64,000 nucleotides of DNA from Alphaproteobacteria bacterium (GCA_964291285.2 OZ219787.1:1312001-1376000); one strand, 5' to 3'. Shown: positions 1-58,510, counted from the stretch's first letter. The notes: generated from the sequence alone by a model not told the origin. Translations and numbers: made by a program.

Positions 1-271
1 TCCCGCCCGCGCCGGCCCGGTGCGGAACGACCCCGATTCAGCCGACAGACGAGGTGCGCCCTGCGCCTGCCTCGCGCACGCGCAATCAGGCGCGCGAACC
101 GCGCCGGCGCAATGGCGCGCCCGCGCCCGCCCGCGATTGCGCGCGAATAAGGGTCGCTCCCAAGCCGGGACGGCATGGCCGTCAAACCGAAGCGTAACCA
201 AAGGGGATTATCCGTTTGACTAAATATCAGCCCGTCTCCTAGCCTGTGCTCTTCACAGCGGGAGATCAAGC

Positions 272-1652
272 ATGGCGAGGAAATCTGATAGGGTAGAAGG
301 CAGGCGACGCAGCGGCGACGCAGCGGCGACGCAGCGGCGACGCAGCGGCGACGCAGCGGCGACGCAGCGGCGACGCAGCGGCGACGCAGGAAGCCAACTG
401 GCGCAACCGCACCATCTGGACGCGCGACAATCTCCATGTCCTGAGAGGCATGAACAGCGCCACGGTCGATCTCATCTATCTCGACCCGCCCTTCAACTCC
501 AACCGCACCTATAGCGCACCCATAGGCTCGGAGGCGGCCGGGGCTGCCTTCAAGGACTCATGGACCTTCGACGACGCGGACCGCGTCTATCTGGCACTGC
601 TGCAAGAGCGTGACCCGACGACTTTCGCCATAATCGACGCGGCCCGGCTGGCGCACGGGCGCGGCATGGCGGCCTATCTCGGCATGATGGCGCAACGCCT
701 CGTCGAAATGCGGCGTGTCCTGAAGCCGACCGGCAGCATCTATCTGCATTGTGACCCGTTCGCGTCGCATTATCTCAAGATGCTCATGGACGCGATTTTC
801 GGACGCCTTAATCACCGGAACGAGATTATCTGGTGCTATACTGGCCCCGGCTCACCGCATATGCGCCAGTTCAACCGAAAGCACGATACAATCCACTGGT
901 ATTCAGTCGGCGAGACATGGACCTTCAATGCCGACGCCGTGCGTATTCAGCACCATGGCAAGACCAAGGCGAATTTCAAAGACGGTTTGCGCGGTTCTGG
1001 ATTTATCGAGGGCGAATATGGGCTGACGGACGGCAAAGTCCCTGAAACATGGTGGCCGCAAGAGAAAGGAAATGGACTCGCCATAGCGCCCCGCCAAAAG
1101 GCGCAATATGTCGGCTATCCGACGCAGAAGCCGCTTGCCCTTCTGGACCGCATCATCAAGGCGTCGAGTAACGAGGGCGATGTCGTGCTGGACCCATTTT
1201 GCGGTTGCGCGACGGCCGCCGTGGCGGCGGAGCGGCTACAGCGCCAGTGGATCGGCATCGACATTTCCGCGAAGGCGGCCGAGCTCGTCACGACGCGCCT
1301 GCAAGGCATCCTCGACGAAATCCCGCTCTACAAGACCGGCGATGTTGTCCACAGGACGGACCAGCCGGGCCGCACGGACCTGGGAGACCTTCCCCACTAC
1401 CGGACGCACCTGGACTTGCTCTACGGCCAGCAGGAAGGCTTTTGCGGCGGTTGCGGGGAGCATTTCCGCAAGCGCAATCTGACGGTGGACCATATCGTCC
1501 CGCAAGCGCATGGCGGGACCGACCACCTTGAGAACCTTTGGCTGCTGTGCGGCGCCTGCAATTCGTCGAAGGGAACGCGCTCGCAAGAGCAATTCCTGAA
1601 AGAGCGTATGCAGAAGCGCGCCGCCCTGTTCCCGTGGCTGATAGAGGCGTGA
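272..1652 (+). CDS. Beta-class N6A/N4C DNA methyltransferase with C-terminal HNH endonuclease; frameshifted in 5' tandem repeat (catalytic ORF 450-1652)
   Basis: DPPF motif precedes YPTQKP...DPFCGCAT. C-terminal CxxC...DHIVP...GG...NL...CxxCN. The conserved N-terminus NRTIWTRDNLHVLRGM lies in frame upstream of ATG450 with no start codon. RBS GGGAG and ATG272 are in another frame. Confidence 0.88.
303..389 (+). repeat. 11-bp tandem repeat GGCGACGCAGC x ~8
   Basis: 7 perfect units at 303-379 plus 10/11 of an eighth, counted directly. Confidence 0.97.
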
Positions 1653-2621
1653 CTAGTATGGCCGCGCCCCGCTCGCCAGCCCGTTCTCGGCAATCAGCCG
1701 GGCGTAGGTCAGGCGCTTCCCGACCATGCCGGCCGCCAGTCCCGCCATTTGTGCCAGCGTCCCGGCTTCGCGGATGTTGTGCCGCCCGGCGAACTCCGCG
1801 ATGTAGCGGTGAAGGTGCTTCGGCGAGAACTTGTGATAGACGCCCTTGTGCGCCCGCTTCAACATGGCCCAGAAGCTCTCGATCCCGTTGGTATGCGCCT
1901 GCTGGCGGACATACTCGCCAGCGGAGTGATTGACCGCTTCATGCTGAAACCACACTTGCAGCGCCCGATAGACCGTCGCCTCGTCCGAATAGACCGTCGT
2001 GCCGATGCGGGCGTTGTGAGCGGCGAAGCCTGCCAGCGACGGCGCGTCCGCGTGCTGGACATGGCGGGCGCGAACCTGCTTCGTGCCCCGGTCCTTCACG
2101 CCAACGACAATGTCCTTGCCGACAGCGCCGCGACCCTCAAGGCTCTCCCGCTTCGCCTTGTGCATGTTCTTGCGCAGCCCGCCCAGATAGACCTCGTCCA
2201 CCTCTACCGGCCCGTCCATGGGCGGCTCGTCGTCGCGCTTGAAGGCTTCGCGGATGCGCTGGAGCATGAACCATGCGGTTGCCTGCCGGACGCCTATGTC
2301 CCGGCCCAGCTTCACGCTGGAGACGCCCTTGAGCGAAGTCAGGTGCAGGTAGATCGCCCAAACCCACTTGCGGAACGAGAGCTTGGACCGCTCCATGACG
2401 GTGCCGATGCGGACGCTGAAATGCCGCTTGCAGCCGGGGCAGTAGTAGGGCATCGGCGGGTTGCCGGTGCATTCAATCGTCTCGGTATGGCCGCAGCGCG
2501 GGCAATGGCGACCGTTCGGCCAGACCTTCGCCTCAAACCATTCGCGGGCGCTTTCCTCGGTCGGGAACATCTCTCCCAACTCCATGATGGTCACGCCTTC
2601 GCGGTAGTGCTTGCCAGCCAT
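1653..2621 (-). CDS. IS1595-family (ISXO2-like) DDE transposase
   Basis: Zn ribbon CPRCG...CPGC; VEVDE, YSDE, HTNGIESFW, Y..EF..RHN motifs; GGAGG before ATG2621. Confidence 0.93.
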   Translation of the reverse strand: MAGKHYREGVTIMELGEMFPTEESAREWFEAKVWPNGRHCPRCGHTETIECTGNPPMPYYCPGCKRHFSVRIGTVMERSKLSFRKWVWAIYLHLTSLKGVSSVKLGRDIGVRQATAWFMLQRIREAFKRDDEPPMDGPVEVDEVYLGGLRKNMHKAKRESLEGRGAVGKDIVVGVKDRGTKQVRARHVQHADAPSLAGFAAHNARIGTTVYSDEATVYRALQVWFQHEAVNHSAGEYVRQQAHTNGIESFWAMLKRAHKGVYHKFSPKHLHRYIAEFAGRHNIREAGTLAQMAGLAAGMVGKRLTYARLIAENGLASGARPY

Positions 2622-3047
2622 GACGGCCTCCGTTCCGACTGCTTGAGTCAGAATATGGGGACTCGCCGTCATTTAGTCAAGCGGATAATCCCCTAACCAA
2701 AGGAGCCGCCGCACCCCATGCCCATCATCGACCCCTGGTCGCCGGAGAACATCGAACAGCGCCGCCGGGACAGCCTCGACTGGCTCCAGAGGGCCGGACC
2801 CTTCAATGCGCCCGGAGACGCGGACTTCGCCCCGGACCATGACAATACATGACATTCCATGACATCCACGGTGGAGAGGACGATCCCGCCGCCCCGCGCA
2901 CGCGCGGGCGCGCATTATGCGCAGGCGCGGGACGCTCTTCCGGCAACAGGGGCGTCCGGAACCACGGCCCGACCAAGGAGGCTGCAATGCCTTGCGAACG
3001 ACCGGAGCGGAGACCGGCCTGGAGTGGGCCCCTTGGGTCGGACAGTT

Positions 3048-3842
3048 TCACGCGGCATTTTTGACAGGGTTGCGTTGTTGTTTCTCCTCGAAGCGGTTTG
3101 GGCTCAGATATCCGAGGGCGGAGTGCAGGCGTCTGTGGTTGTAGCTGTCGATGAAGCGTGGCAGTTGCCTTGCGACGTCATCGGCGGTCTCGAAGGCCAT
3201 GGGATAGACGCCTTCGACCTTCAGGGTTTTCATGAAGCTCTCCATCATGGCGTTGTCGTAGGGGTTGGCTCGTCGTCCCATGGAGCCGACCATCCCGTGT
3301 TTGTCGAGCCGGGTCCGGTAGGCATGGGCGGCGTATTGCGAGCCCCTGTCGGAGTGGTGGATGCAGCCGGGCTGAGGGCTTCGGTTCCCGATCGCCTTGT
3401 CGAGCGCCGCGAGCGTCAGGCGCGCGTCGATGCGTTGCCCGAGCGCGTAGCCGACAATGCGGCGCGACCAGGCGTCCATGACCGCCGCCAGATAGACGAA
3501 GCCGTCCAGGATGGCGATGTAGGTCAGGTCGGCGACCCAGAGCCGGTTCGGGCCCTCGACCTCGCAGTCCCGGGACCGGTCCGGGAAGACCGGCCCGTCG
3601 TGGCCGCTGTCCGTGGTGGCGACAAAGCGGCGCTTGCGCGGCGGCTGCAGGGCGTGTTCGCGCATCAGCCGCCTGACCTTCTTGTGGTTGACGGTCCGGC
3701 CCCGGTGGCGAAGTTCCGCCTGCATGCGCCGCCAGCCATAGGCCTCGAACTCGTCCTTGATCTCGTGCATCGCCTCGACCAGGGCGGTGTCGTCGACCGG
3801 GCTCTGCGGCTCGCGGTAACAGGTGGAGCGCGCGATCCCCAT
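3048..3842 (-). CDS. IS3 OrfB, rve/DDE integrase core
   Basis: WVADLTY, HHSDRGSQY, DNAMMESF, YNHRRLHSALGY motifs. Confidence 0.93.
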   Translation of the reverse strand: MGIARSTCYREPQSPVDDTALVEAMHEIKDEFEAYGWRRMQAELRHRGRTVNHKKVRRLMREHALQPPRKRRFVATTDSGHDGPVFPDRSRDCEVEGPNRLWVADLTYIAILDGFVYLAAVMDAWSRRIVGYALGQRIDARLTLAALDKAIGNRSPQPGCIHHSDRGSQYAAHAYRTRLDKHGMVGSMGRRANPYDNAMMESFMKTLKVEGVYPMAFETADDVARQLPRFIDSYNHRRLHSALGYLSPNRFEEKQQRNPVKNAA

Positions 3843-4192
3843 CAGTCGGCATCCTTCGGCAACGGAGAGGCCTCGGGGCCGGCGATCACGGACATGGGCG
3901 CGCGCCTCGACCGCCGTCCTTGCCGCAAAGCCCCCTTTAGGAACTCCAGCTCCGCGGCCTGCCGGCCGACCAGCCGTTCGAGCGTCGCGATCCGGGCCTC
4001 ATACGCCCGGAGCGTGTCAGCCGCCTCGGCCTCCTCATCGAAGGCGCCGGCCTCGTATTTCTCCAGCCACAGCCGGATCAGGGTGCGAGACAGGTCATGA
4101 CGGCGGGCCAGACCGTAAAACGTCTCGCCTGCCAGATACTCCTCAACGACCTGGCGCTTGAAGGCCATGCTGTGCGTGCGGTGCTTCCTCAT
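3842..4192 (-). CDS. IS3 OrfA, HTH
   Basis: HSMAFKRQVV...LARRHDL...W HTH plus coiled coil; TGATG overlap with orfB. Confidence 0.88.
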   Translation of the reverse strand: MRKHRTHSMAFKRQVVEEYLAGETFYGLARRHDLSRTLIRLWLEKYEAGAFDEEAEAADTLRAYEARIATLERLVGRQAAELEFLKGALRQGRRSRRAPMSVIAGPEASPLPKDAD

Positions 4193-4612
4193 CGGCGTCG
4201 ATCCTTCCAATGACCGCGCACCTGTCAATTTCCTACAACAAAACTGTCCGAGACCAGGGGCCCACTCCAGCCCCATGACAAAACATGACATTCCATGACA
4301 TGGCGCGAGGGAGTCGCTGTCGCCCCCATCCGTCGCCCCCAGGCGGAGAAGCCGGGGCCTCAAGCGGCCGGACCTCCGCTGCATGGAGGACCCGGCTCGC
4401 CCTGCGGGCGTCCGGGGCGACGAAAAGGGGGGCGGAGACCGGCCGGGACAGCTTCCAACCGGCGGCTGTCGGTATAGTTCCAAGCGGGTTGCGAGTCTGC
4501 GGGTGCTCTTGCTATGTTGGAGGACTGACGGGTTTGGAGGCTCGTTCAGGCGTCAGGCCGGCGCAGGTTGCCGGTCCAAGGGGATTCAAACAACAATCAT
4601 GGGAGTGCAAAC

Positions 4613-12857: not shown

Positions 12858-12933
<76 letters not shown>

Positions 12934-12961: not shown

Positions 12962-13273
12962 TCAGGCGTCCGTCAGCACGTGGATCGTCCGGTTGGCGAG
13001 CAGGTCCTTCACCTTCGCCGCATAGGCGGCCATATGGGCAGACGCGCCATGCGCGCGGAGCGCGTCCAGGCTCGCCCATTTCTCCACGACGACAAAGGTG
13101 TCCTCGCCGTATTTCGTCTGGATCGCGCCCGCTTCGGCGTCCACGGCCGCGCCGTATTCGATGCAGCCGTCCTCCGCATGCACTGCCGGCACATTGGCGT
13201 TGAAGGCTTCGAGGACCTCGGCGCGGCGGCCGGGCTTGGCCTGGATGACGGCGATGACATGGACCCTGGACAT
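12962..13273 (-). CDS. ABM-family putative quinol monooxygenase (YgiN-like)
   Basis: AKPG, EDGCIEY, VVEKWASLDALRAH...HM motifs. Confidence 0.87.
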   Translation of the reverse strand: MSRVHVIAVIQAKPGRRAEVLEAFNANVPAVHAEDGCIEYGAAVDAEAGAIQTKYGEDTFVVVEKWASLDALRAHGASAHMAAYAAKVKDLLANRTIHVLTDA

Positions 13274-13388
13274 GGATGTTCTCCTGTTCCCGCCGCCCCC
13301 TCGGCAACGGTTGTCCGGCTGTTATTGACCGCTTTCGGCCTCCGGGGTCAAGATTGGGACAATTCCCGGTTCCCGGAGGCCATACCCG

Positions 13389-15533
13389 ATGCCCGAAGCG
13401 CGCGCCCTCTGCTCTTCCTGCGACATTTACTGCCAGGTCCTGGTCGAGACCGCAGGCGGACAGGTCGCCCGGGTCAAGGCGATGGACCCGAGGCCGGGCC
13501 AGGCCAACATCTGCATGAAGGGCGTGCATGCGCCCGCCGGCTTTACCCATTCCGACCGGGTGTTGCATCCGCTCCGCCGCAAGGGGCCGCGCGGCTCCGG
13601 GGAATGGGAGCGGGTCGGCTGGGACGAGGCGCTCGACGACATCGCCGAACGCCTTCAGCGGGCCGTGGACCGCTACGGGCCGGAGGGGTTCGCCGTCTCG
13701 ACAAGCTCCTGGAACACGCAGACCGATCAGGGCATGTGCCGGCGCTTCATGAACCTTGTCGGCTCGCCCAACTGGATTTCCGGCGTGGCGCTCTGCGCGG
13801 GCAACACAGCCGCCGTCAACCGCCTGGTCTATGGCTGGTTCCCCTATCCGGATTTCACGAAGACGCAGTGCATCGTGCTGTTCGGGCACAATCCGAAGCC
13901 GCATTCCTGGACGCCGGAATACAACGCCATCCGCCGGGCGCAGGAGCGCGGCGCGAAGCTGATCGTGCTCGACCCGCGCCGGTCGGAGAACGCCGAGCTC
14001 GCCGACATCTGGCTGCCGCTCAGGGTCGGCACCGACGCCGCCATGTGTCTCGGCTGGCTCAAGGTCATCATGGACGAGGGCCTCTGGGACAAGGATTTCG
14101 TCAAGCGCTGGACGGCGGGCTTCGACGAGCTTCGCAGGCGCGTGGACGAGTTCCCGCTGGACCGGGTCGCCGAGATCACCGGCGTTCCGGCCGACCGGAT
14201 CGCGGAGGCGGCGCGCCTCTATGCGCAGTCCGGCCCGGCGGTGATTCCCTGGTCTCCGATCACCGACCAGCAGCGCAACTCGACCTCCGCCATCCGCCTC
14301 CAGGCGATCCTGCGCGCCATCTGCGGCAATCTCGACGTTCCGGGCGGGGAGGTGCTGCACGGTTTCCACCCGCGCATCGTGCCGGAGACCGACCTGGAGT
14401 TTCACGACGCGCTGCCGGAAGCGCAGAAGGCCAAACAACTGGGGTCCGACACGCACCCGGTGTTCACCTATCGCGGCGCCGCGCCCCTGGAAGAGCCGAC
14501 GCTTCGCGTCTGGGGGCGGCGATACGCCAATCTCGTCTCCGGCTGCTACATGGCGACGCCCTCGGCCGTCTTCCGCGCCATGGCGGACGGCGAGCCATAT
14601 CCGGTCAAGGCGTTCTTCGCGCTCGGCAACAACACGCTGCTGAGCTTCGCCAACATGCAGCTGATCCAAAGGGCGCTCCTGAACCAGGACCTGCTCGTCG
14701 CCTTCGAGCACATGAAGACGCCGACGGCGGCGCTGTGCGATTACATCCTGCCGGGCGATGCCTGGACGGAACGCAAGGCGCTGGCGGACGGCTTCGGCTG
14801 GACCGCGATCTGCCGCACTTCGCAGCAGGCGACGGAGCCGCCGGGAGAGGCGCGCAGCGTTTACGATTTCTGGCGCGGCCTGGCGGTGCGGTTCGGCCTC
14901 GGCAACCATTTCCCGTGGGAAACGGCGGACGCCGTGCTGGACCATCGCGTGGCAGGCCTCGGCATGGATTTCGACAGCTTCGCACGGGAGCACGCCGCGC
15001 ATACGGACGGCCTCCGGTTCCGGAAATACGAAAAGACGGGCTTCGCGACGCCCTCCGGCAAGGTCGAGCTTTCCTCCTCCGTGCTGGCCGAATTCGGCTT
15101 CGACCCCTTGCCCTACTGGCGCGAGGAACCGGCGGGGCCGGACGACATGCCGCTTCGCCTCTTCACGGGCCTGCGCGAGGACGCCTATTTCCAGACCGGC
15201 CACCGCCATATCGCGGCGCTCAGGGCCCGCGCGCCCGAGCCGCTGCTGTTCCTGCATCCGGAAGATGCAAGGGAAGCCGGCATCGCCGACGGCGAGCCCG
15301 CCGTCGCGGAAACGGCGCAGGGGCGGGTGCATATGAAGGCTGCCGTCCGCAACGACATGCAGAAGGGCCTGGTGCGGATACCCCACGGCTGGTGGCTGCC
15401 CGAGGTCGGGCTGGAGAGCGCCTGGGAGATGGCCGACGCCCAGCTCTGTCCCGACGACGAGGATTTCCTCGACCGCGAACAGGGCATCCCGCACTTCAAG
15501 GGCATCCCCTGCCGGGTCGCGCCGGCGGCTTAG
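13389..15533 (+). CDS. Mo/W-bisPGD oxidoreductase, acetylene hydratase-like
   Basis: CSSCDIYC...ICMK 4Fe-4S motif, RRFMNLVGSPNW...CAGNT, ATPSGKVEL, DREQGIP; no Tat signal. Confidence 0.85.
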   Translation: MPEARALCSSCDIYCQVLVETAGGQVARVKAMDPRPGQANICMKGVHAPAGFTHSDRVLHPLRRKGPRGSGEWERVGWDEALDDIAERLQRAVDRYGPEGFAVSTSSWNTQTDQGMCRRFMNLVGSPNWISGVALCAGNTAAVNRLVYGWFPYPDFTKTQCIVLFGHNPKPHSWTPEYNAIRRAQERGAKLIVLDPRRSENAELADIWLPLRVGTDAAMCLGWLKVIMDEGLWDKDFVKRWTAGFDELRRRVDEFPLDRVAEITGVPADRIAEAARLYAQSGPAVIPWSPITDQQRNSTSAIRLQAILRAICGNLDVPGGEVLHGFHPRIVPETDLEFHDALPEAQKAKQLGSDTHPVFTYRGAAPLEEPTLRVWGRRYANLVSGCYMATPSAVFRAMADGEPYPVKAFFALGNNTLLSFANMQLIQRALLNQDLLVAFEHMKTPTAALCDYILPGDAWTERKALADGFGWTAICRTSQQATEPPGEARSVYDFWRGLAVRFGLGNHFPWETADAVLDHRVAGLGMDFDSFAREHAAHTDGLRFRKYEKTGFATPSGKVELSSSVLAEFGFDPLPYWREEPAGPDDMPLRLFTGLREDAYFQTGHRHIAALRARAPEPLLFLHPEDAREAGIADGEPAVAETAQGRVHMKAAVRNDMQKGLVRIPHGWWLPEVGLESAWEMADAQLCPDDEDFLDREQGIPHFKGIPCRVAPAA

Positions 15534-15635
15534 GGCACGCTTCGACCCGGATGGCCCGACGGTCATTCGGGACAGAACCGTCCGAGGCCGGCATCCGGTG
15601 GGGAAGGCGCGGCTGCGGGGATACGCTTGCGGAAG

Positions 15636-16155
15636 TGTCATGAGATGTCATGTTCTGTCATGCGGGGGCCGCGCGGTGTCATGATGTGTCATGATGTGTC
15701 ATGTTTCGTCATGGTCGGCCATGCGAACGGCGCATAGCCCGTAGCCGTTCCGGGCATGCGGCCATCGTTTCAGTCTGGTGCTCCGGGTATTCCATCCGGT
15801 TTCCCCGGCCTTGCATCTTCGGCATGGTCTCTCCTTTCCGTCCGTCGTCGCTCCGTTCTTCCCGCCGCCCGGCGCGGCGGGACCCTTTTTCGCGCGTAAT
15901 GCGCGCCGGCGCCCGCGCGCCCGTCGGCGCGCGTTTCGCGGCGGCGCGGTTTGCGCGCCTGATTGCGCCTGCGCCCGCGAGCCGGACGCAGGGCGCACTT
16001 TGCCCGTTGGCAGAATCGGGGGCTTTTTTCGCGCCGGCGCCGGCGCGAAGGAACGGGGCGGTGTCCGGACGCCGCCTCGTCGGGACCAATATGTCTTCAC
16101 GATTCTCAGAAGTCAAATAATTTTAGGAATTATTACGAAAATTTAACGAACAATG
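15636..16155 (-). repeat. CATGACA-array element, copy C (complete)
   Basis: Minus strand: TTGACT-17-CATATT (16116-16088), GC-rich leader, AAAGGAG, micro-ORF 15825-15709, then 4+3 heptamers at a 10-bp period (15636-15713). Colinear with 57985-58490. Confidence 0.85.
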
Positions 16156-16388
16156 CGCTGATTCGATTCCACTGAATCGTTTACCGCCGCCCGAACAGCC
16201 TGCTTCTTCACATCCCGTTCGCCTCCCCGGATCGAAATGCGGTTCCATCGGGACGGGGCTGCATCGACGGCAGGTCGCGCTCCGGCGTGAGCGTTTTGGG
16301 GTGGGACAGTTTGCGGCTGACAGAATGGAACCGGTTGGGAATACTCTGGCGGACTGAACCGGGGCAGCCGGTGCCGGGGGAGGGCCGG

Positions 16389-17564
16389 ATGAATATCGAC
16401 AAGTGCATCAATCTCGACGACCTGCGCGTACTCGCGAAGAAGCGCGTGCCGAAGCTGGTTTACGACTTCATCGAGGGCGGCGTGGACGGTGAGGAAGGGC
16501 TCTGGCGCAATGAGGACGCCTTCCAGCGGCGCTCGCTCGTGCCGCGCTACATGGTCGATGTCTCGACGCTCGACCAGTCGGTGGAGCTGTTCGGCCGCAC
16601 CTGGTCCAGCCCCTATGGCATCGCGCCCACCGGCGGCATCGGCAATTACCGCCGCGGCGGCGACATGATGCTGGCGCGGGCGGCGCGCGACGCCAATATC
16701 CCCTTCATCATGTCCGGGGCTGCCAACGCCTCGATGGAGGAGATGGCGCGCGAGGCGCCCGAGCATGGCTGGTACCAGATGTATACAGCGAATGACCGGG
16801 CGATCTCCGAGGACATGATCCGGCGCGCGGCCGACCTCGGCATTCCGGCACTCGTCGTCACGGTCGATGTACCGGTCCATTCCAACCGTGAGCGCAACCG
16901 GCGCAACGGGTTCGGCCGCCCGCTCAGGCTGACGCTCGGGACCAAGCTGGACACGCTCCGCCATCCCGCCTGGCTCCGGGACTACATGAAGCAGGGCTTC
17001 GCCATGCTGGAGAACTGGAAGCCCTATGCGCCCGAGGGCGCGAGTTCGCTCGAGGTCGGCGAATTCATGGCCGGACAGGTCCCGGCCAACCTCACCTGGG
17101 CGGATATCGAGCGGTTCCGGGCGCTCTGGCCGCGCACCTTCATCCTGAAGGGCGTCATGCGCACGGACGACGCGCTCCGGGCGGCGGAAGCCGGGGTGGA
17201 CGGGCTGATGGTCTCCAACCACGGCGCCCGCCAGCTCGACCGCGCGCCGTCTCCGCTGGACGTGCTGCCGGCGCTCGACGCGGCCGTGGGCGACCGCATG
17301 GCGCTGATGCTCGACGGCGGCGTCCGGCGGGGCGCTGACATACTGATCGCGCTCGCCAGCGGGGCGAAGTTCGTCTTCCTCGGCCGGCCGACCCTCTACG
17401 GCGCGGTTGCGGGCGGGGCGGCAGGGGCCGTGAAGGCGGTCGATATCCTCCGCGACGAGATCGACAAGGTGATGGCCCAGATCGGCTGCCCGTCGCTCGA
17501 CCAGCTGGGGCCTGATTTCCTCCACCGGGACCAGGAGGACGCGGGGCGCAACATCCGGCTCTGA
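16389..17564 (+). CDS. FMN-dependent alpha-hydroxy acid dehydrogenase/oxidase, copy 1
   Basis: APTG, LKG, VSNHGARQLD, DGGVRRGAD, GRPTLYG. Confidence 0.92.
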   Translation: MNIDKCINLDDLRVLAKKRVPKLVYDFIEGGVDGEEGLWRNEDAFQRRSLVPRYMVDVSTLDQSVELFGRTWSSPYGIAPTGGIGNYRRGGDMMLARAARDANIPFIMSGAANASMEEMAREAPEHGWYQMYTANDRAISEDMIRRAADLGIPALVVTVDVPVHSNRERNRRNGFGRPLRLTLGTKLDTLRHPAWLRDYMKQGFAMLENWKPYAPEGASSLEVGEFMAGQVPANLTWADIERFRALWPRTFILKGVMRTDDALRAAEAGVDGLMVSNHGARQLDRAPSPLDVLPALDAAVGDRMALMLDGGVRRGADILIALASGAKFVFLGRPTLYGAVAGGAAGAVKAVDILRDEIDKVMAQIGCPSLDQLGPDFLHRDQEDAGRNIRL

Positions 17565-17594
17565 CGGCCGCGGCCGGCGCCGGGAGAGGGCCGG

Positions 17595-18764
17595 ATGAAT
17601 ATCGACAAGTGCGTCAACCTCGACGACCTGCGCATGCTGGCGAAGAGGCGCGTGCCGAAGCTGGTTTACGACTACATCGAAGGCGGCGTGGACGATGAGG
17701 AGGGGCTCCGGCGCAATGAGGACGCCTTCCGGCGGCGTTCGCTCGTGCCGCGCTACATGGTGGATGTCTCGACCCTCGACCGGTCGGTGGAGCTGTTCGG
17801 CCGCACATGGTCGAGCCCCTACGGCATCGCGCCCACCGGGGGCATCGGCAATTTCCGCCGCGGCGGCGACAGGATGCTGTGGCGGGCCGCGCGGGACGCG
17901 AATATCCCCTTCGTCATGTCGATCGTCGCCACCGCCCCGATGGAGGACATGGCGCGCGAGGCGCCCGAGCATGGCTGGTACCAGTTGTCCGCAGCGAAGG
18001 ACCGGTCGATCTCCGAAGACATGATCCGGCGCGCGGCCGATCTCGGCATTCCCGCCCTTGTGGTCACGGTCGATGCGCCGGTCGATTCCAACAAGGAGCG
18101 CAACCGGCGCAACGGCCTCGGCGGCAAGATCACGCTCGCGGCGAAGCTGGAGGCGCTCCGCCATCCGCTCTGGCTGAAGGACTACTTGCTGCACGGCTCC
18201 GCCATGCTGGAGAACTGGCGGCCTTATGCGCCGGCGGGCTCCAGCGCCGGACAGGTCGATGAATTCGTGGCCGGACAGAGGCCGACCGGCCTCACCTGGT
18301 CCGACATCGAGCGGTTCCGCGCGCTCTGGCCGCGCACGCTGGTCCTGAAGGGGGTGTTGCGCACCGACGATGCGCTCCGGGCGGCGGAGGCCGGTGTGGA
18401 CGGGCTGATCGTGTCCAACCACGGCGCCCGCCAGCTCGACCGCGCCCCGTCGCCGCTGGATATGCTGCCGGCGCTCGACGCGGCGGTGGGCGACCGGCTG
18501 GCGCTGATGATGGACGGCGGCGTCCGCCGGGGCGCGGACATTCTGATCGCGCTCGCCAGCGGGGCGAAGTTCGTCTTCCTCGGCCGGCCGACTCTCTACG
18601 GCGCCGTTGCGGGTGGTGCCGCCGGGGCCGCCAGGGCCGTGGACATCCTCCGCGACGAGATCGACAAGGTCATGGCCCAGATCGGCTGCCCGTCCCCCGA
18701 CCGGCTAGGCCCCGAATTCCTCCACCGCGACCCGGGGGACGCGGGGCGCAATATCCGGCTGTGA
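17595..18764 (+). CDS. FMN-dependent alpha-hydroxy acid dehydrogenase/oxidase, copy 2 (tandem paralog)
   Basis: Same motifs; highly similar to copy 1, including the RBS region. Confidence 0.92.
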   Translation: MNIDKCVNLDDLRMLAKRRVPKLVYDYIEGGVDDEEGLRRNEDAFRRRSLVPRYMVDVSTLDRSVELFGRTWSSPYGIAPTGGIGNFRRGGDRMLWRAARDANIPFVMSIVATAPMEDMAREAPEHGWYQLSAAKDRSISEDMIRRAADLGIPALVVTVDAPVDSNKERNRRNGLGGKITLAAKLEALRHPLWLKDYLLHGSAMLENWRPYAPAGSSAGQVDEFVAGQRPTGLTWSDIERFRALWPRTLVLKGVLRTDDALRAAEAGVDGLIVSNHGARQLDRAPSPLDMLPALDAAVGDRLALMMDGGVRRGADILIALASGAKFVFLGRPTLYGAVAGGAAGAARAVDILRDEIDKVMAQIGCPSPDRLGPEFLHRDPGDAGRNIRL

Positions 18765-55932: not shown

Positions 55933-57297
55933 ATGACGAAACAGCTTACCCTGGTCGTGAAGCGGGACTGCCCGACCTGCACCCTGCTGGAGCCGGTCTA
56001 TGCCGAGCTTGCGGCGTCCGGGATCGCGCTCGATGTCTGGACGCAGGACGATCCCGCTTTCCCGGAAAGCGTGTCCGGCGTGCTCGACGAAGGGCTGGAG
56101 CGTTCCTTCCGGCTCGGCGTGGAGATCGTGCCGACCCTGATCCGGCGCGAGGACGGCGAGGAGACGGAGCGCACCTGGGGCTGGGACCGCGCCGAGTGGG
56201 AGCGCCTGACCGGCCTCGCAGGGCTGGGCGCAGGCCTGCCGCCCTTCAGGCCGGGCTGCGGGGCGAAGAATGTCGAGCCTGGAATGCCGGAGGCGCTGGC
56301 GGCGCGCTTCGGCTCGGCGCGGCTCAAGTCCCGCCGGGTTCCTCTCGCGCCGCTGGAGGACGAGGTCGAGGCGGCTTACGACCGCGGCTGGTCGGACGGC
56401 CTGCCCGTCGTGCCGCCGACCGAGGCGCGCGTGCTCGCCATGCTCGACGGCACGACCCGCGATCCGGGCGAGGTACTGGGCCTCGCGCCGCCCAACCTCC
56501 AGCCCTGCACGGTCGAGAAGGTGGCGGTCAACGCGGTCATGGCGGGCTGCAAGCCGGAATATCTGCCCGTCGTGCTGGCGGCCGTCGAGGCGGCGCTGGA
56601 CGATGCCTTCTGCATGCACGGCGTGCTCGCGACGACCTACTATATCGGCCCCATCGTCATCGTGAACGGCCCGGTGCGCCGCGCCGTCGGCATGAACGCG
56701 AAGGGGAACGTCCTCGGACAGGGCAACCGCGCCAACGCCACCATCGGGCGCGCGCTCCAGCTCGTCGTGCGCAATGTCGGCGGCGGCAAGCCGCAGGGCG
56801 TGGACCGGGCCGCACTCGGCAATCCCGGCAAATACACCTTCTGCTTCCCCGAGGACGAGGAGGGCTCCGCCTGGCCGCCGCTCTCCGAGAGCCGGGGCGC
56901 GGGCAAGGGGGCCTCGGCGGTCACGCTCTTTGCCGGCTACGGCGTGATGGGCGTGGTGGACCAGGATTCGCGCACGCCCGAGGCCCTGGTGGAAACCTTC
57001 GCCGACGTGTTCCGGGGCCTCGAGAACCGCAACCGGCGCAATATCGACGCGGTGGTCGTCGTGTCGCCGGAGCATGACCGCGTGTTCCGGGACGGCGGCT
57101 GGTCGCGCGAGGACCTGGAGGCCGCGCTCCGCGCCGCGCTCGACGAGCCGGGGCACGCCACGCCCAAGCTGCGCGACGGCGGCCTCTTGATCGTCCGCGC
57201 CGGCGGCGGCGCGGGCATGTTCTCCGCCATTCTACCCGGCTGGGCCGCCACCGGCCCGGTCGGCAGCATTCCGGTAACGAAGGAGGTAGGAACGTGA
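55933..57297 (+). CDS. Thioredoxin-fold (CPTC) fusion protein, partner of UGSC selenoprotein
   Basis: KRDCPTC, PGCGA, GWSDGLPVVPPT, NAVMAGC, RANATIGRA. Confidence 0.8.
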   Translation: MTKQLTLVVKRDCPTCTLLEPVYAELAASGIALDVWTQDDPAFPESVSGVLDEGLERSFRLGVEIVPTLIRREDGEETERTWGWDRAEWERLTGLAGLGAGLPPFRPGCGAKNVEPGMPEALAARFGSARLKSRRVPLAPLEDEVEAAYDRGWSDGLPVVPPTEARVLAMLDGTTRDPGEVLGLAPPNLQPCTVEKVAVNAVMAGCKPEYLPVVLAAVEAALDDAFCMHGVLATTYYIGPIVIVNGPVRRAVGMNAKGNVLGQGNRANATIGRALQLVVRNVGGGKPQGVDRAALGNPGKYTFCFPEDEEGSAWPPLSESRGAGKGASAVTLFAGYGVMGVVDQDSRTPEALVETFADVFRGLENRNRRNIDAVVVVSPEHDRVFRDGGWSREDLEAALRAALDEPGHATPKLRDGGLLIVRAGGGAGMFSAILPGWAATGPVGSIPVTKEVGT

Positions 57298-57815
57298 GAA
57301 ACGCACCAGTGCTGGTCGATCCGACCGGCGAGGTCGAGCCGGCGCGGCGCGAGCCGCTCGCCCGGCCGGCCTCGCTGGACGGCAGGACCGTGGCCCTGCT
57401 CGACATTTCCAAGGCGCGCGGCGACGTCTTTCTGGACCGCCTGCATATGCGCCTGGACGAGCGGGGCATCGAAGTGAAGCGCTACATGAAGCCGACCTTC
57501 GCGCGCATCGCCCCGATCGGCGTGAAGCAGCAGATCGCTTCCGAGGCCGCCCTCGTTGTCGAAGGGCTGGCCGACTGAGGCTCCTGCACATCGTGCTGTA
57601 CGCATGATATCGCAGACCTGGAAGCGAGGGGCGTCCCCGGCGTGGGCGTGGCGACCACGGAGTTCGTGGAGGCCTGGCAGGCGCAGTCCGCCGCGCTCGG
57701 CTACGAGCCGCCCATGATTTTCGTCCCGCACCCGATCCAGGACCGCACCGACGCCGAAATCCAGGCGCTGGCAGACGCCGCCGTCGACGAAATCGTAAGC
57801 CGCCTTACCGCCTGA
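57294..57815 (+). CDS. UGSC-family selenoprotein (TGA 57576-57578 read as Sec)
   Basis: LAD-TGA-GSCTSC; frame stays open for 78 more codons (HD...LE.RGVP...HPIQDRT). Confidence 0.85.
57590..57608 (+). promoter_or_regulatory. Bacterial SECIS-like hairpin
   Basis: Stem ATCGTGC/GCATGAT with loop TGTAC containing GU, starting 11 nt after the UGA. Confidence 0.6.
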
Positions 57816-57982: not shown

Positions 57983-58490
57983 TTGTTCTGGAGAAATCTG
58001 GTAATAATCCCTTTACAGGGGTTGCATTTTTAGAAATTATGATATGATAGGTCCGAGGGAAGAGGCATCCGGAGCCGCTTCCTGCCCGTGCCGGCCCGGT
58101 GCGGAACGACCCCGATTCAGCCGACAGGCGAAGTGCGTCCTGTGCCTGCCTCGCGTGCGCGCAATCAGGCGCGCGAACCGCGCCGGCGCCGACACGCGCC
58201 CGCGCCGGCACAGGCGCGCGCAGGATACGCGCGAATTGGGGTCCCGCCGCTCGGGCAACCGGGCGGCGGGAAGAACGGAACGACGACGGATCGAGAGGAG
58301 AGACCGATGCCGAAGATGCAGAACCCGGGAAACGGGATGGAATACCCGGAGCCATCGCCCGAAACGACCACTTCATGCACCAACCGGCTATGGGGTATGC
58401 GTCTTTCGCATGCAGAACATGACATCCCATGACATATCGCGCGGTATCCCGCAGCTCCGCATGACAAAACATGACATATCATGACACATC
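57983..58490 (+). repeat. CATGACA-array element, copy D (complete)
   Basis: AT-rich promoter-like head, GC-rich leader, GAGGAG, micro-ORF 58307-58432, heptamers at 58418, 58428, 58460, 58470, 58480. Confidence 0.85.
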
Positions 58491-58491
58491 G

Positions 58492-58510
58492 CTGGAGTGG
58501 GCCCCTTGGG
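58492..58510 (+). mobile_element. Solo IS3 terminal-repeat remnant
   Basis: CTGGAGTGGGCCCCTTGGG is identical to 3019-3037. Confidence 0.65.

Follow-up and report, generated by a model that had tools for sequence, protein, structure and literature searches.

The window, that is the whole analysed stretch of 64,000 nucleotides from an alphaproteobacterium, possesses four related copies (A to D) of an intergenic element, whose features are collected in Table 1. Copies C and D are colinear over about 520 bp, the latter from about 57983 to 58490, with a mean column identity of 81% as against a nucleotide identity of 77% in a separate pairwise comparison. Every sequence block quoted for them in the first-pass annotation is present in the alignment. 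Positions 1-130 of copy A are 89% identical to copy D. In all copies of the window a Shine-Dalgarno sequence and an ATG open a short ORF which ends at a TGA within an array of CATGACA heptamers.

Table 1. Features of the four element copies and of the insertion sequences (IS) within them, in coordinates of the window.
Feature	Position	Strand	Remarks
Copy A, leader part, window edge to IS1595 insertion	1-203	+	leader profile E 1e-29
IS1595-family IS within copy A	204-2693		Pfam; ends and 9-bp duplication TAACCAAAG read from the sequence
DNA methylase-HNH gene inside the IS1595-family IS	450-1652	+	Pfam
Transposase of the IS1595-family IS	1653-2672	-	Pfam
Copy A, distal part	2694-2864	+	RBS, 44-aa ORF 2718-2852, heptamer triple 2838-2864
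Copy B, proximal part	2880-3019	+	partial leader, AAGGAG, start of 12-aa ORF (ATG 2987)
IS3-family IS within copy B	3020-4269		rve and HTH_21 domains; duplication GCC; ends read from the sequence
Copy B, distal part	4270-4300	+	heptamer triple 4274-4300
Copy C, gene-less cassette derivative	15636-16155	-	promoter, leader, short ORF, two heptamer triples; identity to D 81%; leader profile E 4e-63
Copy C, heptamer array 2	15636-15662	-	three CATGACA, 10-bp period
Copy C, heptamer array 1	15677-15713	-	CATGACG and three CATGACA, 10-bp period
Copy C, short ORF MPKMQGRGNR...	15709-15825	-	38 aa, after AGGAG; stop in degenerate first heptamer
Copy C, GC-rich leader (5' untranslated region)	15826-16087	-	blocks GCGCAATCAGGCGCGC.AACCGCGCC and ACGCGCGAAA.AGGGT
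Copy C, AT-rich upstream region and promoter-like hexamers	16088-16155	-	TTGACT 16116-16111, 17 nt, CATATT 16093-16088
Copy D, gene-less cassette derivative	57983-58510	+	leader profile E 2e-75; end extended over the post-array motif
Copy D, promoter-like TTGCAT, 15 nt, TGA-TATGAT	58022-58048	+	extended -10 type; alignment with 34 copies
Copy D, hairpin at leader start (GGGAAGAGGC/GCCGCTTCC)	58057-58082	+	
Copy D, short ORF MPKMQNPGNG...	58307-58432	+	41 aa, after GAGGAG; stop in second heptamer
Copy D, heptamer array 1	58418-58434	+	two exact CATGACA, third position degenerate
Copy D, heptamer array 2	58460-58486	+	three CATGACA
TGGAGTGGGCCCCTTGGG	58493-58510	+	6 nt past D array; identical to left inverted repeat of the IS3-family IS at 3020

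Copies A and B had been described as split by IS, and the inserted elements were found to belong to the IS1595 family in A and the IS3 family in B. The latter sits 4 nt before the array of copy B (GCCC, in which GCC is the target duplication). The proximal module of copy B is also present in the loci L006, L021, L037 and L049 of the family described below, and L006, L021 and L049 possess the identical junction sequence between the A and B modules. As A and B thus form one two-module unit, the window holds three loci and not four independent insertions; the relatedness of the four copies, claimed earlier, is retained. Different IS families often land in these elements: besides the IS1595 and IS3 insertions of the window, L073 has an IS110, L023 a DDE_Tnp_1-type and L077 an IS66 element. 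The passenger gene of the IS1595-family element encodes an N6/N4 DNA methylase fused to an HNH nuclease, and seven tandem copies of an 11-bp unit (292-400) are situated just upstream of it.

The window contains 22 CATGACA heptamers against 4.38 expected, and none of 100 shuffles reached 22. Seventeen of them are accounted for by five exact triples with a 10-bp period (starting at 2838, 4274, 15636, 15677 and 58460) and a pair at 58418/58428, while the other five are isolated singletons at about chance level. The phased array of the first-pass annotation is therefore real, and it is no CRISPR array, as was also stated there. Because of the 10-nt period, each of the three frames contains a TGA and an ATG; any frame entering the array thus closes there, and a role of the array at the RNA level is conceivable. 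The last heptamer is followed by a loosely conserved YNTCSC and then by a G-run and a C-run, together about 20 nt, and the flanks beyond are unrelated between copies. A motif like the inverted repeat of IS3-family elements, starting with TGGAGTGGGCCCC, occurs at +6/+7 (+7 once) in 14 of the 139 listed array ends. Either the IS targets that position, or the native end of the element resembles the IS repeat and attracts it. An identity of the element with the end of a known IS, which the earlier annotation had named as a way to refute its reading, applies only to the 18-bp motif after the array of copy D, while nothing in the other roughly 500 bp corresponds to an IS. Past the IS3-like motif, the sequence of L010 and L058 resembles the IS interior, and in L111 left and right IS3-type repeats abut with nothing between them. 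On the chromosome OY730441.1, the arrays of L098, L100, L050, L069, L079 and L035 are followed by a GC-rich palindromic repeat (…CATGCCCGG…CCGGGCATG…), and in L100 the whole module is present three times with a 266-bp period.

To analyze the distribution of the arrays, three heptamers spaced at 10 bp were sought in one genome per species, and at least 113 stretches were found. Sixteen assemblies, all of uncultured organisms and titled either Alphaproteobacteria or Rhodospirillaceae, account for at least 94 array loci. Among the stretches listed, 18 lie on a single chromosome of 4.59 Mb (OY730441.1) and 10 on OZ253490.1, and the expectation of many more copies genome-wide was thus borne out in the relatives, with at least 18 array loci on that one chromosome. 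Nineteen of the 113 listed loci belong to other phyla (Dyadobacter, Brachyspira, Planctomycetota and others); none of the 19 matches the leader profile, and they were therefore treated as unrelated repeats. The leader of C and D matched 40 listed loci by blastn, and in all 40 the match precedes the array in the same orientation, about 100 to 2400 bp away from it. The leader profile, in turn, matches 58 of the 113 listed loci, a lower bound since 33 loci carry just 300 nt per side, and the leader is the most widely conserved part of the element.

The left edge of the element is an AT-rich block of about 70 bp extending from (T)TTGTTC to GAAATAATTCC. Downstream of it, TTGAC, a spacer of 15 nt and an extended -10 element of the form TGnTAnnAT were found in 34 pattern-matched copies, 15 further rows being unmatched by the pattern; the spacer is shorter than the usual optimum. 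A consensus scan of the C region gave two promoter-like sites against 0.2 in shuffles, of which the minus-strand one is that of copy C, and the upstream region of C is homologous to the promoter block in 34 other copies. For copy D, a generic promoter scan chose a different hexamer pair than the family consensus.

The 5' hairpin of the leader has covariation support. Across 34 copies, 85.8% of its cells are paired as compared to 44-66% in slid controls, and 20 cells are changed on both sides, a figure not matched by any of 500 shuffles. A second hairpin (GC, then an A-run) and a third one vary in sequence while their stems are kept; the third, positioned just before the purine-rich RBS region, was found in 30 of 57 copies with a mean z of -1.25 against mononucleotide shuffles. 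The blocks between the hairpins are conserved as sequence. The consensus fold of the whole leader is weak (-9.5 kcal/mol, covariation term +0.11, 29 copies), in an alignment in which MAFFT misaligned the variable hairpins. The structured RNA proposed by the first-pass annotation is hence upheld for the 5' hairpin and the hairpin before the RBS, and not for the leader as a whole.

The elements could be portable promoters that drive or tune the downstream gene by means of cis-regulatory leader RNAs or of small RNAs, the heptamers being an operator or roadblock. Such a role would agree with the conserved promoter block, with the compensatory changes in the 5' hairpin and the recurrent hairpin before the RBS, with the wide conservation of the leader and with the orientation of A/B and D, which point at downstream operons. 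The gene downstream is co-oriented in 27 of 45 cases and opposite in 18, by gene calls from a custom GC3 filter; the lack of a clear bias speaks against a general promoter-donor role, and in nine cases no gene lies within 1 kb. Copy C points at the 3' end of a convergent gene. Rfam 15 at gathering scores gave a single match in the whole window, a tRNA at 12858-12930, and at E up to 1 copies C and D drew only differing chance-level matches (E 0.75 and 0.66), so that no Rfam family accounts for either copy. With the weak whole-leader fold in addition, a role as portable promoter appears very unlikely.

The short ORFs differ in length (12, 38, 41 and 44 aa), and those of C and D share about 53% of their amino acids, as counted from the translations, at a nucleotide identity of 77%. 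A family of small-peptide genes had been envisaged, and a good RBS, an ATG and an open frame in each of the four window copies would fit it. On the other side, length and sequence of the ORFs change from copy to copy, the frame of the MPK... ORFs is lost after about 15 codons in the seven copies that possess it, the array closes every frame regardless, and the ORF of copy A is a remnant of a larger gene (see below). The small-peptide reading, with secreted or regulatory products, was rejected on the frames of the MPK... copies and is regarded as extremely improbable.

In related genomes, a gene of 320-345 aa occupies the space between the same promoter and leader and the same heptamer triple, with its stop inside the array. 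Complete ORFs of 322-345 aa are situated between leader and array in L025, L048 and L018; the gene copy in L050 is frameshifted, and that in L013 is cut by the contig end, its 5' part being beyond the end of the locus. Homology to this gene, which encodes a small-terminase-like (TerS-like) protein, was detected in 10 of the 113 loci listed. The search for copies beside a conserved protein gene, advised by the earlier annotation, thus led to an intact partner, though to a small-terminase-like one and not a transposase. In tblastn with the intact protein the sole match in the window was at 2724-2843 in copy A (residues 266-321, E 0.003), and C, D and B gave no match. The 44-aa ORF of copy A consists of the first six codons of the gene joined in frame to its last 38, and the C-terminal motif DPWSPENIEQRRRDSLDWL is common to this ORF and L013. 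Judged from these alignments, the ORF retained in copy A is an in-frame internal-deletion remnant of the TerS-like gene, and C, D and B are derivatives without the gene. The 520-bp unit is accordingly best read as a putative gene-less descendant of a multicopy cassette of about 1.35 kb, composed of an AT-rich promoter, a GC-rich leader of about 250 nt, the TerS-like gene and a heptamer triple. The membership in a non-autonomous multicopy family proposed at first is consistent with the longer coding form in relatives, while an independent RNA or peptide gene gives way to a derivative of the cassette.

The first ~70 residues of the TerS-like protein match Pfam Terminase_2 (PF03592) with an E of 3e-13; L025, L048 and L018 score 41.6-51.2 bits, against a curated cut-off of 26.1 bits. 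PHROG small-terminase families are matched as well, and a profile of 38 family members matched only the SF6 small terminase in the PDB (2cmp, 4zc3 and 3zqp, E 6e-8 to 8e-9). The AlphaFold model is all-helical with a mean pLDDT of 70.8. It is composed of a helix-turn-helix at 12-49, long helices at 52-107 (pLDDT 85-95) and further helices at 146-199 and 244-291. In Foldseek the DNA-binding domain was placed on SF6 4zc3/2cmp with a TM score of 0.82, and the first 130 residues on the full-length SF6 protein (3zqq_C) with a probability of 0.99 and a TM score of 0.36 on the target. From the model, the first ~120 residues would represent a small-terminase DNA-binding domain and a predicted oligomerisation core. 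Ordinary phage small terminases of 150-200 aa match residues 9-120 only, and among the 68 matching records of a phage collection none covers 80% of the protein, all matches being N-terminal. The C-terminal ~200 residues form a helical, acidic extension which has no phage counterpart in that collection. PADLOC (5027 models), NCBIfam and, for the C-terminal part only, the ESM Atlas gave no match, and no catalytic domain was found by Pfam, the structure model, PADLOC or NCBIfam. The protein family is large: one search yielded 299 members at E up to 0.001, another 1319 representatives, and where a source gives these proteins a name, it is 'terminase small subunit'. The dN/dS values, obtained with a custom Nei-Gojobori script, were 0.14-0.38 over residues 1-120 and 0.45-0.88 in the tail; the low values of the former indicate purifying selection on the protein core. 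In the acidic tail of L018 and L050 an expanding GAC/GAT (Asp) codon repeat differs in length between the otherwise near-identical copies. A long antisense ORF across the intact copies showed no Pfam match and a lower GC3, and was judged to be a by-product of the high GC.

All intact copies stop inside the array (…EFAPGHDIS*), the heptamer triple overlapping the stop codon. An HDxx end, with the stop in CATGAC, is possessed by 101 of 120 close homologues and by 12 of the top 40 representatives at 50% clustering, and by just 2 of the 70 most distant matches, which are ordinary TerS proteins. Relatives down to about 40% identity retain the CATGAC reading at their ends. The heptamers thus travel with the TerS-like gene family, and their persistence in copies without the gene argues for a role of the nucleic acid and not of a peptide.

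The flanks of the intact copies L025, L048, L018, L050 and L013 contain only metabolic genes, regulators and IS elements. Genes for large terminase, portal or capsid were not found within 3 kb of these five most complete copies as far as the contigs extend (L013 being truncated), nor anywhere in the 64-kb window. The multicopy spread in unrelated flanks and the decay by deletion and IS insertion are evident from the loci compared. L018 and L050 lie on one chromosome with different flanks and show 19 mismatches and a few indels in the acidic tail in an alignment of 1358 columns. For 19 of 50 leaders the nearest relative is in the same genome, and truncated (5'-truncated) and tandem modules are common. 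For each of the three leader-bearing copies of the window, the closest relative belongs to another genome. Window positions 12962-15662, through the last triple of copy C, are 90% identical to L073, which holds the element of C at the same place, split by an IS110-family IS. The occupation of the C locus in a genome of just 90% identity implies that at least some copies are old, stable and not recently mobile, and together with the affinities of the window leaders it suggests that several subfamilies predate the species.

Such a pattern could belong to an undescribed transposable element with MITE-like gene-less derivatives, whose enzyme is encoded elsewhere and for which the TerS-like protein is an accessory or passenger. 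Like MITEs, the family has many short copies in unrelated genomic contexts whose two ends recur in a longer and rarer form that carries the gene, at least one of these copies (A) being of internal-deletion origin. Sharp boundaries, about 10 coding against about 100 gene-less array loci among those listed, the near-identical pair on one chromosome, the enrichment of nearest relatives within a genome, the 5'-truncated tandem modules and the IS3-type motif at 14 of the listed array ends are in line with transposition. Unlike MITEs, the cassette has neither terminal inverted repeats nor a target duplication, as the first-pass annotation had noted. The left end, (T)TTGTTC plus the AT-rich block, is not complementary to the heptamers with their G-run/C-run, and a comparison of 25 nt of left with 30 nt of right flank in 39 bounded copies gave no consistent direct repeat of 5 nt or more. 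The coding form likewise has no transposase, its protein lacks a catalytic domain, and the IS3-like motif is present at one end only. The orthologous occupation at 90% genome identity also speaks against recent movement, and gene conversion between old copies could yield the near-identical pair. An origin of this kind is considered unlikely; as regards proliferation, it overlaps the explanation preferred below.

Small terminases are known from the packaging modules of phages, satellites or gene transfer agents (GTA), in which they are present in a single copy. By its DNA-binding domain the protein of the cassette belongs to the small-terminase superfamily, and its gene falls outside the context of a packaging module. 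Both by sequence and by fold it resembles the SPP1/SF6 G1P protein (PF03592; 3zqq, 4zc3, 2cmp) in the helix-turn-helix and the long helices which follow. It differs in being twice as long, with an extension of ~200 residues, in standing alone among metabolic genes and not beside a large-terminase gene, and in occurring in many copies per genome together with gene-less derivatives. The pac site of SPP1 is described as three sets of direct repeats spanning promoters and the start of the small-terminase gene, and in both systems short direct repeats are thus situated right at the gene (PMC4737164). In the cassette the repeats lie at the 3' end over the stop codon and not at the 5' end as in SPP1. 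Clusters of short direct repeats in or beside a small-terminase gene are a pac-type feature, and the intact copies display it.

The pac site of phage P1 has two hexamer clusters which flank the cleavage site and are bound by PacA. Copies C and D resemble it with two clusters of three to four short direct repeats some tens of bases apart, 3(+1)+3 heptamers. They differ from it in the motif CATGACA, in the strict 10-bp spacing and in the single triple of the intact copies. No cleavage or methylation control as in P1 is evident for the cassette. The GTA small terminase of Rhodobacter capsulatus, likened here by its description, is also alphaproteobacterial and serves the packaging of host DNA; it is located in the GTA cluster, and the excerpt of the source used here mentions no multicopy sites (PMC6854486). 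In the mostly open-access literature searched, neither this element nor multicopy stand-alone small-terminase genes were described, and CATGACA was not linked to a terminase. What is rated as new is the stand-alone, multicopy cassette of TerS and site with its decayed derivatives; the small-terminase superfamily as such was already known.

The anatomy of the cassette, the homology of its protein, the linkage of gene and array and the purifying selection on the protein core are all observed. On these grounds there is about an even chance that the phased heptamers are the sites of the TerS-like protein and a pac-like signal which gene-less copies could use in trans, and we infer for binding, oligomerisation and packaging the following course. 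Intact copies elsewhere in the genome would make the TerS-like protein, which would assemble as an oligomer and bind, through its helix-turn-helix domains, heptamers that would all lie on one face of the DNA helix. It would occupy the array of its own copy and, in trans, those of gene-less copies such as C, D and B. Arrays bound in this way would mark pac-like packaging-initiation signals for the terminase of a phage or a GTA, and the DNA adjoining each copy would be packaged preferentially. The SF6 DNA-binding domain, from the closest solved relative, showed little sequence preference for the pac repeats (PMC4737164), and homology alone hence does not predict specific binding of the heptamers. 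A pure DNA-site role leaves unexplained why the gene-less copies keep a promoter, a structured leader and a translated start, and packaging by itself leaves the arrival of copies at new loci unexplained.

Phage satellites of the SaPI/PICI type encode small terminases; these islands measure several kb, comprise an integrase, a replication module and regulators, and are present in one or few copies. Like them, the cassette has a TerS gene outside a phage which could redirect the packaging machine of a helper to DNA of the element. It is distinguished from them by its 1.35 kb, its one gene, the lack of an integrase and its tens of copies. The cassette might even represent the smallest packaging parasite, a stand-alone TerS plus pac element of 1.35 kb multiplied through the chromosome, with pac-only copies diverting the terminase of a helper phage or GTA. 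Copy-bearing alleles would then be enriched in particles and spread by transduction and homologous recombination. This extension is considered quite unlikely; if true, it would amount to a transduction-based drive and not to transposition. In another scenario the TerS-like protein and its many sites act as a decoy in defence, diverting the terminase of an infecting phage onto host DNA and so spoiling packaging. A decoy would accord with the way in which small terminases of satellites work in general and with the strong, autonomous promoter; the protein was not matched by any of the 5027 PADLOC models and no defence genes were seen beside the intact copies, and such a decoy is judged highly improbable.

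A TerS-derived gene stands alone here with its own promoter and a phased repeat site; each genome has tens of copies, the gene is under purifying selection, and many gene-less copies retain the site. Should the heptamers be packaging signals, the chromosome would be seeded with cognate pac sites, and the way in which DNA is chosen for transduction or GTAs could be tested directly in this clade. Otherwise, a duplicating element family without a recognisable recombinase would be of interest as well. For annotation, the intergenic repeats and the scattered 'terminase small subunit' calls belong together and are not prophage remnants.

Other features of the window were also recorded. A mobile-element-rich island at about 24000-44400 contains a type I/IIG-like restriction-methylase, a PIN-domain protein, two tyrosine integrases side by side, an IS21 pair (Mu-type transposase and IstB), a DDE_3 transposase and a Transposase_29 protein, and no phage structural genes were seen in it. 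Two adjacent FMN-dependent dehydrogenase genes at 16287-18764 on the plus strand are a tandem duplication with 80-92% nucleotide identity by the repeat finder. Directly upstream of copy D, a gene of the UGSC family (PF24696) occupies 57294-57815 on the plus strand as two ORFs in the same frame, divided by a TGA at codon 95. With this TGA read as selenocysteine the product contains ...EGLAD-U-GSC-TSCC..., the motif that gave the family its name, and the gene probably encodes a selenoprotein.
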